From Candidatus Cloacimonadota bacterium (GTDB taxonomy: Bacteria; Cloacimonadota; Cloacimonadia; Cloacimonadales; TCS61): a stretch of DNA of 33,816 nucleotides. Both the position numbers and the translations under genes were made by a program. The stretch covers positions 1 to 33,816 of the forward strand of contig DAOWES010000261.1 in the NCBI GenBank assembly GCA_030638385.1, given 5' to 3'. The notes beneath the pieces were generated by a model. It was not told the DNA's origin. It made no database searches and was given only the letters and a program-made list of their open reading frames with translations. Below, piece after piece: positions 3,432 through 21,114 of this stretch; the first letter of the stretch is position 1; every line of letters starts with the position of its first letter.

Positions 3432-3604
3432 CAGATTAACTCCTCCGCATCGTGTCCAATATCTTCAAGAATAACTTCTGCAATGTGTCTATCTCCTTCA
3501 CTAAAAAAATCACCTTGAATTGCATTTTCTATTGCCGACTGGATAATATCAATCTGAAATCCTGAAAGTTTAATTCCATAAACTGAATTCTTTTTGGTTT
3601 CCAT
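3431..3604 (-). CDS. Micro-ORF, 57 aa, acidic (not in the ORF track)
   Basis: METKKNSVYGIKLSGFQIDIIQSAIENAIQGDFFSEGDRHIAEVILEDIGHDAEELI. The ATG is in an ATGA overlap with the stop of ORF 3604..3915. Confidence 0.45.
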   Translation of the reverse strand: METKKNSVYGIKLSGFQIDIIQSAIENAIQGDFFSEGDRHIAEVILEDIGHDAEELI

Positions 3605-3915
3605 CACATGAACCTCGCTTTCAAATTTCTTTTAATTAGTTTGATACTTCGATTTGCATAAGCCCAATCGATTAATTTCCTTCCATAGAATTTCATTGTC
3701 TTGATCAAAACTTTCGGCTCGATTCCGACAAGCGCACAACCTCCAAAGATTGCGAACCAGGATCCTGTTGGTGCAAGAAGTGTGATCACTCCATATCCAA
3801 TCAAAGGATATCCAATCACCTTTCTCATGAATGTTATTGGTTTGTAAGTCTCAACACCCTCGAGGAATTTAATCCTTGAGATCAATTGTTTTCGTGTAAG
3901 CTTTCTTGTTTGCAT
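3604..3915 (-). CDS. Small membrane protein (two predicted TM helices)
   Basis: Hydrophobic stretch GYPLIGYGVITLLAPTGSWFAIFGGCALVGI. A class E promoter lies exactly 21 nt upstream of the ATG. Confidence 0.6.
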   Translation of the reverse strand: MQTRKLTRKQLISRIKFLEGVETYKPITFMRKVIGYPLIGYGVITLLAPTGSWFAIFGGCALVGIEPKVLIKTMKFYGRKLIDWAYANRSIKLIKRNLKARFM

Positions 3916-3936: not shown

Positions 3937-3949
3937 TATTTAAATGTTT
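3937..3949 (-). promoter_or_regulatory. Class E TATA-like promoter (coding strand AAACATTTAAATA)
   Basis: TTTAAATA is followed by 21 nt and then ATG 3915, with no SD. Confidence 0.6.
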
Positions 3950-4136: not shown

Positions 4137-4571
4137 TCATTTGGATTTTTCATTGATCTCGAAAACCTTAATCCCAAGATCAGTAATTTGATAATATTTA
4201 TGACGGCTGTCTTTGATCTCTTGGCCGTTTTCTAATGTGTCTGGTTCTTTGTAGTATGCAAATAAATTGTTGACTGTTGTTCCAGGGATTATTTTAAGCT
4301 CTCGGATCCATCCATTGTTTTTTGCTCGGGCCATGAATCGACTTACGCAATTGATCCCTTGGATGTTGCATAATTTTTTTAGATCTGAAGGGGAGAAGGC
4401 CCGAATGTTAAGCGCCATGACTTGAAGAATATTGATTTGATTGATTGAAAGTTTGAAATCTTGTTTGATTTTTACGACAGGATTAAGGTTGAGGTCTAGT
4501 TGTTGGGGGGTGGTGTGTATCTCCTCAAGGGTGGTGGTGGTTAGTATTTTTTTATCTGATTTGTTTTGCAT
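4137..4571 (-). CDS. Winged-helix transcription regulator (about 144 aa from ATG 4571)
   Basis: The C-terminal half has an HTH-plus-wing pattern (FSPSDLKKLCNIQGINCVSRFMARAKNNGWIRE...HKYYQITDLGIKVF). The track start at 4622 is a GTG placed directly against AGGA, so the ATG at 4571 is preferred. The start remains uncertain. Confidence 0.5.
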   Translation of the reverse strand: MQNKSDKKILTTTTLEEIHTTPQQLDLNLNPVVKIKQDFKLSINQINILQVMALNIRAFSPSDLKKLCNIQGINCVSRFMARAKNNGWIRELKIIPGTTVNNLFAYYKEPDTLENGQEIKDSRHKYYQITDLGIKVFEINEKSK

Positions 4572-4795
4572 GGTGTGGATTTTTTTGGACTCTTTTTTAT
4601 TTTTCTCTTTTATTTTTTGCACTCCTGACTAATAATTCCTTCAGCTCCGTCCTTGAGATGCAGCACCTTAGACTACCAGACTTCGCCTGACTTACAATCG
4701 TAAAGAAAAATTAATAACCACCACCACGCCCTTTTTTTAATTTGAGTTTCCTCGTCGGCGTAATAGATTTTTGTTGTTAACAATTATCCGTTACG
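4572..4795 (-). promoter_or_regulatory. Long untranslated leader of the regulator gene (island A, proximal part)
   Basis: The predicted start is about 21 nt after the TATA at 4817-4824. There is no ATG at that point and no ORF. The leader contains GGGCGTGGTGGTGGTTA, GTCAGG twice, and ends in GTCAGGAGT. Confidence 0.4.
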
Positions 4796-4816
4796 AAGAA
4801 TCTTAGAGAATTAGAT

Positions 4817-4829
4817 TATTTAAATGTTT
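4817..4829 (-). promoter_or_regulatory. Class E TATA-like promoter with no ORF at +1
   Basis: AAACATTTAAATA is present, but the sequence 21 nt downstream is CGTAACGG, not ATG. Confidence 0.5.
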
Positions 4830-4832
4830 CTT

Positions 4833-4970
4833 AAAAAATGGGAAAAGAGGTGTGTAACAGATAATTGACCGAAGTAAAAAATCATCACCTCTTCCGGGCT
4901 CTCATGCAAACAAGATTATTTCCGAAGAAATGTGCCCTAAACTTTCAGGAGGTTAAACAACTGATCATCT
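4833..4970 (-). ncRNA. Candidate ORF-less transcript of about 140 nt (island A, distal part)
   Basis: It has its own class E promoter (4992-5004). The longest ATG-initiated frame I found is about 21 codons. It has an ATTTC-UUCG-GAAAT hairpin (4918-4931). It also has an 8-10 bp stem, GGAAGAGGTG (4886-4895) with CACCTCTTTTCC (4841-4852), followed by T6 (4833-4838). Confidence 0.45.
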
Positions 4971-4991
4971 GATTATTACTAGAAGACTATG

Positions 4992-5004
4992 TATTTAAAT
5001 GTTT
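4992..5004 (-). promoter_or_regulatory. Class E TATA-like promoter driving the ORF-less transcript
   Basis: AAACATTTAAATACATAGTC. At +1 the sequence is AGATGATCAG, followed only by a 7-codon frame. Confidence 0.5.
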
Positions 5005-5017
5005 TCTTTGATCAGAA

Positions 5018-5389
5018 TTATGCTGTAGGTTCTGGAACTGGATCCTTATTCTCTTCTTCCGTAGGAGCTTGCACATTACCTTCAAGTAATTCATAAACAG
5101 GCCCAACAACATGAGTACCATAACAAGCTCCGACCTGTTCTTTGATTAAGGAAATCTCTTCTGCAGTAACTTCAACAATTCCGCCAACATTAATTTTTTT
5201 AGCAAGGTTGAATTTCTTAAATTTATCTCGGCCAGTTTCTTGTGGCGCATTTTGAGGCTTGGGAATATTAGCCATTATAGCATTCACACAGACACCATTC
5301 AAAATGGAATTAACATTTTTCCCGTCGATAGTTTCCTGTATGGGCTTACCTCCCAGATTAAGGATCTCTGAATCAAAATTGATTTTCAT
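5018..5389 (-). CDS. Hypothetical protein (123 aa)
   Basis: A class E promoter lies 21 nt upstream of the ATG. No motif recognised. Confidence 0.6.
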   Translation of the reverse strand: MKINFDSEILNLGGKPIQETIDGKNVNSILNGVCVNAIMANIPKPQNAPQETGRDKFKKFNLAKKINVGGIVEVTAEEISLIKEQVGACYGTHVVGPVYELLEGNVQAPTEEENKDPVPEPTA

Positions 5390-5423: not shown

Positions 5424-5638
5424 TGCCGATCTAAAATATTTTCAATTTGAAATCTTAAATCTTCCAAGACTACAACATCATCAAGAAAGTCTCGGAGCAT
5501 CCATCTTACTGGACAAGCAATATCAAAGGAACAATCTCCTTCTAAATATTCTCCGCAGACCAAATGATATTGACATTCCAATTTTCCTAATGGGAAATTA
5601 TCCGTTACATATGTGGGGGTTGGATTATCTTCTGTCAT
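5414..5638 (-). CDS. Hypothetical Cys-rich protein (74 aa)
   Basis: ORF carrying CQYHLVCGEYLEGDCSFDIACP. Confidence 0.5.
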   Translation of the reverse strand: MTEDNPTPTYVTDNFPLGKLECQYHLVCGEYLEGDCSFDIACPVRWMLRDFLDDVVVLEDLRFQIENILDRQNI

Positions 5639-20844: not shown

Positions 20845-21114
20845 TTTATGAATATTGGACCCGGAGGTTTTACCCTCCAACTTATCACGTGATTGCAAAC
20901 TCCTGACCGAATCGGAATTTCTTCTTATCGGAGTGAAAGCTTAGGCCCCATTATTGTGTTGCGCACAAACCACACCCTGCAAGGAATGACCCAACCTTAC
21001 CCGAGATGCCAGTGTCCGTCGGGACCTTAGAGCATTGTCCTTGATGGTTAGTTTTTAGCCGACCCCAAAGAGTTACTTAGGCGAGGGGCTTTTGAATTCC
21101 CGATTCCGCAACAT
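20845..21114 (-). promoter_or_regulatory. G+C-rich structured leader / candidate cis-regulatory RNA (island B)
   Basis: The region runs from the predicted start at 21114 to the GT ATG. A 9-bp closing helix pairs 21098-21106 with 20909-20917, including a G-U pair that would be a C-A mismatch on the other strand. There is a CCCGA...TCGGG hairpin. A GGAGG-GTAAAA-CCTCC hairpin lies at 20863-20878. A 13-codon leaderless mini-ORF spans 21114..21073. Confidence 0.5.

Follow-up and report, generated by a model that had tools for sequence, protein, structure and literature searches.

A candidate two-tier antisense RNA circuit ahead of the non-structural genes of a tailed virus

What is made from two tandem promoters that point at no start codon and stand ahead of a putative regulator gene? 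The question is raised by a 446-nt gap (4572–5017) in a 33,816-nt stretch of DNA (contig DAOWES010000261.1; 'the window' below means this whole stretch). The window is a tailed-virus genome with genes on the minus strand throughout, in which large terminase, portal, prohead protease, major capsid and tail tube proteins were detected and Mu F-like, RusA and YopX proteins are also encoded. The gap is flanked by a 123-aa open reading frame (ORF) that comes after the structural block and by a 144-aa ORF, encoding the putative regulator, that is the first of a block of small non-structural genes. We lean towards reading the gap as encoding a two-tier antisense RNA circuit with control over the genes that open this non-structural, presumably early or regulatory, module; in our best model a trans-acting small RNA (sRNA1, or RNA 1) and a relay leader (RNA 2) would together repress early genes. 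The 144-aa protein has 12 metagenome homologues with 34–62% identity to the query, and an upstream gap is kept with every one of them (256–558 nt, measured between called genes). Contigs carrying homologues, together with one contig from a DNA pattern scan, gave 13 distinct versions of the locus, window included (related loci carry L numbers; L013 was used as the reverse complement of its deposited record). Complementarity was scored ungapped; RNAduplex, which permits huge loops, was uninformative on long segments. MAFFT alignment failed for the RNA 2 hairpin across specificity classes and for sRNA1 between the window and L017, and hairpins and sRNA1 were compared by hand from per-locus folds.

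Covarying complementarities within the locus

RNA 2 carries an antisense element, segment X followed by a U-run, that is complementary to a site in the regulator coding sequence, X′. In the window X′ can be written as an A-run followed by UACUAACCACCACCACC, with ACC repeats, and the X:X′ complementarity has z = 6.2; complementarity is present in 13 of 13 loci (z 1.7–9.4) with sequences that form four covarying specificity classes. X of the GGUGGUGG class pairs with X′ of the CCACCACC class in eight loci, UUGUUGUUG with CAACAACAA in L018 and L021, and GAGGGUGG with CCACCCUC in L026, where the match is a perfect 22-mer; L027 has an X:X′ type of its own. Cross-scoring separates these classes, and none of 20,000 random reassignments reaches the observed sum (p < 5e-5). 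In all loci the X:X′ duplex is stronger than the RNA 2 hairpin of which X is the 3′ strand (−19 to −39 versus −9 to −19 kcal/mol; −30.5 versus −16.1 kcal/mol in the window). X′ falls in the disordered N-terminus of the regulator and is constrained as nucleotides, because the X′ nucleotides are read in another frame in L010 (NNHHH versus TTTT), the target repeats of L018 (5020–5070) are read in two different frames, and all six N-terminal Thr codons of the window regulator are ACC, a codon that makes up 12% of Thr codons genome-wide. Tandem nucleotide repeats of GAGATAGCTACCACCCC also occur in the 5′ part of the regulator ORF, twice in L005 (4001–4100) and three times in L014 (3288–3400), and may be multiple target sites or iterons.

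A separate complementarity joins sRNA1 to the 5′ end of RNA 2. In the window, module b of sRNA1 matches RNA 2 over 14 bp including one G–U pair, a score reached by 0 of 1,000 shuffles. Pairs of this type occur in seven lineages with seven different sequences, given here as loop/RNA 2 partner with the position in RNA 2: the window (CAAUUAUCUGUUAC/GUAACGGAUAAUUG, +2..+15), L017 (UAAUUUCUGUUAC/GUAACAGAAAUUA, +2..+14), L018 (UUUUCAAUUUACU/AGUAAAUUGAAAA, +1..+13), L005 (UUUCUAGUC/GACUAGAAA, +3..+11), L011 (UUUACAGUUCG/UGAACUGUAAA, +1..+11), L025 (UUAUCGAAUUUUGUGCU/AGCACAAAAUAAGAUAA, +1..+17, with internal mismatches around a perfect AAUUUUGUGCU/AGCACAAAAU core) and L024. Each loop scores highest with its own partner, and among 5,040 permutations of the loop/partner assignments only the true one attains the observed sum. 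In six of the seven lineages the first target nucleotide falls at predicted +1 to +3. In each lineage other than L018 the target takes in part of the 5′ strand at the base of the RNA 2 hairpin (AAUUG, 4781–4785, in the window); in L018 it directly abuts that strand. A second copy of the module b target, UGUAACGGAUAAUU, lies at 5596–5609 in codons 10–14 of a 74-aa ORF and could be an extra target or a chance match.

The other loop of sRNA1, module a, is complementary to the extreme 5′ end of the predicted leaderless mRNA of a 103-aa ORF; the match scores 28, where the background averages 16.3 and has its 99th percentile at 24. The window has 11 predicted primary 5′ ends, and just two of them, the starts of RNA 2 and of the 103-aa ORF mRNA, stand out as outliers (31 and 28, respectively). 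L017 has the equivalent pairing, UCUUGUUCGCA with UGCGAACAGGA of the homologous gene, which also lies behind a class-E box, and this pair differs by one compensatory change, from U–A to C–G. Coordinates of the paired elements and their surroundings are collected in Table 1.

Table 1. Positions in the window of the predicted RNAs, their pairing elements and the associated promoters and genes.
Feature	Position	Strand	Remark
103-aa ORF	3604–3915	−	promoter motif 3937–3948, 21 nt, ATG
Leaderless mRNA 5′ end of 103-aa ORF, start codon included (predicted)	3904..3915	−	module a target
144-aa winged-helix (MarR-like fold, modelled) gene	4137..4571	−	conserved start ATG 4571
X′, A-run + UACUAACCACCACCACCCUU	4527..4552	−	regulator ORF nt +20..+45, codons 7–15
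A-rich TATA-like box GAAAAATAAAAAAG	4592..4605	−	ends 20 nt ahead of regulator ATG
RNA 2 central structured domain, type A	4621..4699	−	closed by GAUUG (4695–4699) with UAGUC (4627–4631)
Segment X + U-run GGGCGUGGUGGUGGUUAUUAAUUUUU, RNA 2 antisense element	4706..4731	−	hairpin 3′ strand
RNA 2 long imperfect hairpin	4709..4785	−
RNA 2 hairpin outer stem	4776–4785 with 4709–4718	−
RNA 2 hairpin inner stem	CUAUUACGCC 4757–4766 with GGCGUGGUGG 4721–4730	−
GAG-GAAA-CUC mini-hairpin in RNA 2 loop	4744–4753	−
RNA 2 5′ end GUAACGGAUAAUUG, module b target	4781..4794	−	+2..+15 of RNA 2
Promoter P-b of RNA 2, AACATTTAAATA	4817..4828	−	predicted start 4795
T6 run, predicted sRNA1 3′ end	4833–4838	−
RNA 1 (sRNA1), ~138 nt	4833..4970	−	both ends predicted
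sRNA1 terminal hairpin	4841–4895	−	stem GGAAGAGGTG (4886–4895) with CACCTCTTTTCC (4841–4852)
sRNA1 antisense module b CAAUUAUCUGUUAC	4854..4867	−	3′ half of terminal hairpin loop
sRNA1 GGGC/GCCC-closed domain	4896–4937	−
sRNA1 antisense module a UCUUGUUUGCAU	4904..4915	−	loop complementary to 103-aa ORF mRNA +1..+12
ATTTC-TTCG-GAAAT hairpin	4918–4931	−
sRNA1 5′ tail element UAACCUCCU	4947–4955	−	single-stranded tail
Promoter P-a of RNA 1, BRE/TATA-like AACATTTAAATA	4992..5003	−	predicted start 4970

RNA structures, promoters and the regulator

The RNA 2 hairpin lies downstream of a positionally conserved TATA-like box and is present in all 12 loci with sequence, with a z-score of −2.2 to −3.7 in 9 of them. 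It is more stable than its own reverse complement in 12 of 12 loci and holds 39 G–U pairs, which makes it a strand-specific structure and points to RNA. The inner stem covaries (CGCC/GGCG, CACU/AGUG, CGCU/AGCG). No conserved ORF was found that would explain the hairpin: a coding reading in a W-W-W frame (4673–4783) was rejected, as this frame lacks a start codon in L011 and L017 and, in L005, lacks one ahead of W-W-W. Downstream of the hairpin, and extending beyond the U5 tract of RNA 2, the type-A central domain is paired in 92% of cells over six sequences, with both partners altered at 7 of 13 pairs; none of 500 shuffles reaches this pairing, and slid controls gave 36–53%. Other loci have unrelated type B or C domains within the same closing stem, whose conserved 3′ strand is UUAUUAGUYRG. 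A riboswitch was considered and set aside: one and the same closing stem encloses at least three unrelated versions of the central domain, and the domain has no Rfam match. RNA 2 may be both leader and regulator. Relative to the RNA 2 start predicted in L018, the first bases of two independent contigs, L019 and L020, fall at −1 and +6; the assemblies may have broken where variable sequence meets conserved sequence, or, had the libraries been made from RNA, these contig starts may hint at transcript ends.

In a preliminary description of this DNA, the leader had been taken to end in GTCAGGAGT (4621–4629) just before the ORF. Neither that placement nor a Shine–Dalgarno (SD) role for the motif holds, with the conserved ATG at 4571 lying 50 nt further downstream and the GTG at 4622 having no counterpart in homologues: the motif belongs to the closing stem of the central domain, of which it forms the conserved 3′ strand and tail, and is part of the conserved UUAUUAGUCAGGAGU (4621–4635) at the 3′ end of the domain. 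The promoter motifs, the ATTTC-TTCG-GAAAT hairpin, the sRNA1 terminal stem and the T6 run of the same description all recur in our analysis where it had placed them. GTCAGGAGT recurs at ~20899–20907, directly before the TTG start of a 649-aa glycosyltransferase ORF.

A short RNA of the sRNA1 type is predicted behind a TATA-like box in eight lineages, its last element being a hairpin whose stem is G-rich and whose loop is large, followed by a U-run; the terminal stem (7–10 bp) differs in sequence and its pairing is kept in all eight. The 5′ tail element UAACCUCCU is kept in three lineages (window, L005 and L011) and matches the anti-SD core at the 16S rRNA 3′ end; possible partners are the GGAGG sites that internal genes carry and the GUCRGGAGU stretch in RNA 2. 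Pairing of the sRNA1 CCUCC tail with GUCRGGAGU was dropped after inspection by eye as inconsistent between lineages. At 4510–4590, L018 has two extra hairpins of the same scaffold (GUGAUGAUUUCUUU...UCUGAUUCAC) upstream of its antisense-bearing hairpin, for which we found no targets.

The motif AACATTTAAATA occurs in six exact copies in the window, all on the minus (gene) strand. An ATG follows exactly 21 nt past the motif in four of the six, and P-a and P-b, as noted previously, are the only copies that lack it. TATA-like boxes equivalent to P-a precede the hairpin cassette in L005, L011, L017, L018, L024 and L025, and at the position of P-b a TATA-like box is kept in all homologous loci with enough sequence. 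A distinct class, AAATAAATATATAAAC with one variant ending AAAA, stands 20 nt ahead of late or structural-gene ATGs (18910, 17939, 17407, 15813, 12714 and 10494, minus strand), which suggests two temporal promoter classes. First genes are predicted to be leaderless, internal genes carry GGAGG, and no conserved −10 element was found at the window promoters. Archaeal promoters were sought as a purine-rich B recognition element (BRE) before a TATA-like octamer, ~22–27 bp upstream of a start with AUG at +1; the four ATG-bearing copies show AAAC-A-TTTAAATA and then 21 nt to the ATG, and judged by sequence the layout of the window promoters is this archaeal BRE/TATA-plus-leaderless pattern, which points tentatively to an archaeal host. 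The A-rich box GAAAAATAAAAAAG ahead of the regulator ATG has the spacing of the late-class box (AAATATATAAAC, 20 nt between box and ATG), and the regulator ORF, unlike internal genes, has no GGAGG; the box could be a weak promoter of the regulator's own.

The regulator had been described as a winged-helix protein, and structural modelling agrees. In the AlphaFold model the predicted local distance difference test score (pLDDT) is ~90 over residues 41–144 and below 50 over residues 1–21, the N-terminal ~40 residues being disordered, and the top Foldseek matches are MarR, ZitR and AdcR (E from 6e-4, template modelling (TM) score 0.44–0.48, probability 1.0). The model thus supports a MarR-like winged-helix fold. 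The protein differs from the MarR family in its identity of 14–20%, its disordered, repeat-bearing N-terminus and its lack of a Pfam MarR match; Pfam and PHROG searches with the 144-aa protein gave no match, and sequence searches overall (Pfam, PHROG and the Protein Data Bank, PDB) were negative or only marginal.

Mechanism and alternative explanations

In the first tier of the circuit that we propose, sRNA1 (~4970 to 4833) would be transcribed from its own BRE/TATA-type promoter and expose two antisense modules in hairpin loops. Module a would sit on the first 12 nt, AUG included, of the leaderless 103-aa ORF mRNA and block its translation, since a leaderless mRNA must present a free 5′-terminal AUG; module b would pair with the first ~14 nt of RNA 2. 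In the second tier, RNA 2 (from ~4795) would either serve the regulator mRNA as its long leader or stop, perhaps through processing, before the regulator, and would fold first into a long, G–U-rich, metastable hairpin whose 3′ strand, X with the U-run, is the better complement to X′. The RNA 2 segment targeted by sRNA1 includes part of the 5′ strand at the base of the hairpin, so sRNA1, once bound, should open that base and would free a U-rich toehold. Exchange of the hairpin for a 22–28-bp X:X′ duplex would then silence the regulator mRNA, by ribosome block or by cleavage of the long duplex, and the lineage-specific covarying pairs would act as specificity (immunity or compatibility) determinants. 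A bolder form of this model is possible but, in our judgement, rather doubtful: an RNA-only cascade in an archaeal tailed virus, running from sRNA to relay RNA to regulator mRNA with a second, direct sRNA target; rapidly co-evolving short pairing modules that set immunity or compatibility classes among related viruses; and an sRNA that both caps the extreme 5′ ends of leaderless mRNAs and triggers toehold-like exchange in a relay.

Several observations weigh against the two-tier circuit. The window's own samples, the only ones checked, are DNA metagenomes, and many of the 13 lineages are related, so that the shuffle statistics overstate independence. In L028 an X of the GAGGGUGG class faces an X′ of the CCACCACC class (L028 1–270), a mismatched pair that may mark a recombinant or escape variant. 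X′ shifts between +10 and +59 by lineage, and with its distance from the AUG so variable simple start-site occlusion is not assured. In L024 module b pairs less well and at a shifted position (+10..+21), L010 and L026 lack the sRNA1 cassette, and L021 has a tRNA gene in the gap and a differently designed hairpin cassette. The preliminary description envisaged a small structured transcript of ~140 nt running to the T6 run. Its promoter and T6 run exist; in folding, neither the 138-nt sRNA1 (z = −0.08) nor the gap as a whole (z = +0.88) surpasses shuffles, and the support for RNA structure in the gap is comparative, from related loci, rather than thermodynamic. Runs of T≥5 are not depleted within genes (45 observed versus 32 in shuffles), and a second T6 (4876–4881) lies inside the sRNA1 hairpin loop; with such runs common inside genes, the 3′ ends, and hence the discreteness of sRNA1 and RNA 2, are uncertain. 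As to the host, the closest terminases belong to bacterial phages and bacterial metagenome-assembled genomes (MAGs), and a genome-collection scan with the terminase returned bacterial MAG contigs only, at ≤47% identity; the same scan with the regulator gave no match.

Could a single transcript explain the locus? One long RNA, from P-a and/or P-b through the regulator ORF, might switch between alternative folds with no RNA acting in trans, the complementarities being intramolecular leader helices that time or limit regulator translation: the terminal hairpin loop would pair with the downstream 5′ region, and the RNA 2 hairpin of its 5′ strand and X (A:B) would be set against a long-range X:X′ helix (B:C). 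All partners do lie on one strand in the same orientation, T-runs are poor terminators here, the structured domain past the U5 tract makes read-through likely, and the B:C helix would enclose the central domain. Module a is hard to accommodate in cis, however, with its target at an mRNA start ~1 kb downstream behind another promoter; the targets begin at predicted +1 to +3 of separate promoters, and the fast, specific divergence of pairs between close relatives (L005 versus L011) fits trans specificity better. We therefore consider action purely in cis unlikely, although it deserves weight. It is less probable still that the complementary segments work as DNA, whether as operators or iterons of the winged-helix protein, perhaps at a replication origin with an A/T-rich unwinding region, or as arms of invertible segments that flank promoters. 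Inverted repeats do flank P-b (4854–4867 and 4781–4794), as in an inverton, and another pair (4706–4731 and 4527–4552) flanks an A-rich spacer with the ORF start; ORF 5′ repeats read in different frames resemble iterons, and inverted-repeat covariation alone cannot separate RNA pairing from shared protein recognition. MarR-type dimers, however, bind short palindromes rather than half-sites 170 bp apart. DNA sites would need neither the strand-specific, G–U-rich hairpin and the wobble positions within the duplexes nor the constant placement of one arm in a loop of a hairpin and of its partner at the predicted 5′ end of a transcript, and invertible arms sit poorly with a single orientation in every contig seen and no recombinase among the 37 window proteins scanned.

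The locus might also be no more than terminator hairpins and promoter spacers at an operon boundary, with complementarities left as functionless by-products of local duplication or template switching. Hairpins with U-runs do mark the point where the structural gene block ends, a rough estimate puts single 14-nt complements with one wobble at ~0.2 per window, and several unrelated matches of similar score exist. This we regard as very improbable: 7 lineages in one case and 13 in another share a geometry although their sequences differ, and compensatory changes, frame-independent X′ conservation and rare-codon bias indicate selection. Least credible of all is the peptide that the preliminary description offered as one option, small, hydrophobic and type-I-toxin-like, with its SD and AUG buried in the sRNA1 stem. 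The 21-codon ATG frame (4820–4885) after GAGGUG is real, and an ATG at GGUGAUGA is also found in L011 and L018. L017, L005, L024 and L025 have no ATG, however, and the peptides of the window, L011 and L018 are unrelated beyond MI; no conserved small hydrophobic ORF of the type I toxin–antitoxin kind was found across the compared loci. GAGGUG abuts the AUG without spacing, whereas real SDs here lie 5–10 nt upstream, and what is conserved is the stem and the antisense loop.

Known systems and related loci

In the immI operon of phages P1 and P7, c4 is a co-transcribed same-strand antisense RNA that represses the next gene; it is a processed cloverleaf whose loops pair with the icd ribosome-binding site, and heteroimmune relatives carry matched changes in antisense and target. 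The CI RNA of satellite phage P4 acts by premature transcription termination. The specificity classes of the present locus mirror the matched changes of c4; the antisense lies here in a stem and pairs inside an ORF, in which the two differ. As described in PMC4825925, in its account of Sabbattini et al. 1995, P4 CI RNA is small, untranslated and encoded on the same strand upstream of the genes that it controls, with seqB complementary to seqA and seqC, and it shuts off downstream replication and regulatory genes. To the extent of that account, the hairpin 5′ strand (A), X (B) and X′ (C) follow the three-way logic of seqA, seqB and seqC. The two share no sequence or structural similarity; here the hairpin is itself built from A and B, the coding sequence contains C, and an extra upstream sRNA tier and archaeal-type promoters are added. 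Like C4-type RNAs, X is complementary to an upstream and a downstream site on the same strand, in 12–13 loci, which is a functional analogy only. Rfam C4 gave no match for the window (gathering threshold) or for 4400–5200 (E ≤ 10), and the 12 homologous loci (gathering threshold) gave a tRNA alone. The locus may thus be viewed as a functional analogue of the P4 CI and P1 c4 immunity RNAs rather than a member of their Rfam family.

The earlier suggestion that a regulator is preceded, head-to-tail, by an sRNA or riboregulator working as a switch holds and becomes much more specific through the covarying complementarities in 7–13 related loci; its companion statement, that nothing comparable is characterized for tailed archaeal viruses, was too strong. 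In the Halobacterium virus phiH an antisense RNA regulates early lytic transcripts (PMC6210493, citing Stolt and Zillig 1993). The likeness is antisense RNA control in a tailed virus, an archaeal one in the case of phiH; as that source presents it, the phiH RNA is an opposite-strand counter-transcript with long perfect complementarity, whereas the complementarities here are same-strand, short (9–28 nt) and arranged as a cascade. Methanosarcina sRNA162 is a structured RNA with two target-recognition domains that mask translation-initiation regions (PMC4825925, reference 51), and sRNA1 likewise has two separate pairing modules; sRNA162 is host-encoded and is not known to use a relay RNA or to target the extreme 5′ ends of leaderless mRNAs. 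A limited literature check found no same-strand sRNA–relay–mRNA cascade that masks leaderless 5′ ends, and in that check RNA-based control in archaeal viruses appeared almost unexplored, the phiH counter-transcript being the sole example. The locus offers a compact candidate circuit of three short pairing modules with natural compensatory variants from 13 lineages. It bears on the regulation of leaderless mRNAs by 5′-end masking, on whether natural RNAs use toehold-type strand exchange and on protein-free diversification of immunity specificity among related viruses. Should the host prove to be an archaeon, the locus would represent an independent origin, in another domain, of a function like that of the P1 c4 and P4 CI immunity RNAs.

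Rfam families were sought in the window at the gathering threshold, a check proposed in the preliminary description, and neither RNA matches any of them; when the window and 12 loci were scanned for tRNA, transfer-messenger RNA (tmRNA) and Rfam families, the sole find was a tRNA-Met in L021. Weak Rfam small nucleolar RNA (snoRNA) matches (E 0.7–7, far below gathering) raised an archaeal C/D box sRNA, which was rejected for want of a D box: the C box GUGAUGA is found only in the window, L011 and L018a, the D box CUGA only in L018a, and the antisense stretch of the window runs through a D-like CUGU. No GenBank phage has DNA similarity to the window. In IMG/VR, scanning with the two flanking proteins found no close relatives, a DNA pattern scan had no match, and a profile scan returned the L021 lineage and nothing else; the DNA pattern scan of metagenomes gave one new variant (L013) and one chance match (L016).

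The same sequence as the window is present in South China Sea cold-seep DNA metagenomes, and Ace Lake, Antarctica, is among the source samples of related loci. ParB-like proteins are encoded beside or near the regulator in relatives (L024 1510–2424; L017 8366–9316); these neighbours, together with a window in which no integrase was found, hint at a plasmid-like rather than an integrated carrier state. A block, AGTTTAGTAATGTAAGAACG, that is not in the window is common to L011 (~410–450), L018 (~4700–4740) and L026 (~597–625), upstream of the second promoter. The tRNA-Met (CAT) gene of L021 (1346–1420) is found in the corresponding gap before the regulator, ahead of the hairpin cassette of L021, and L022, L023 and L029 have a tRNA-Met (CAT) gene in the same place.

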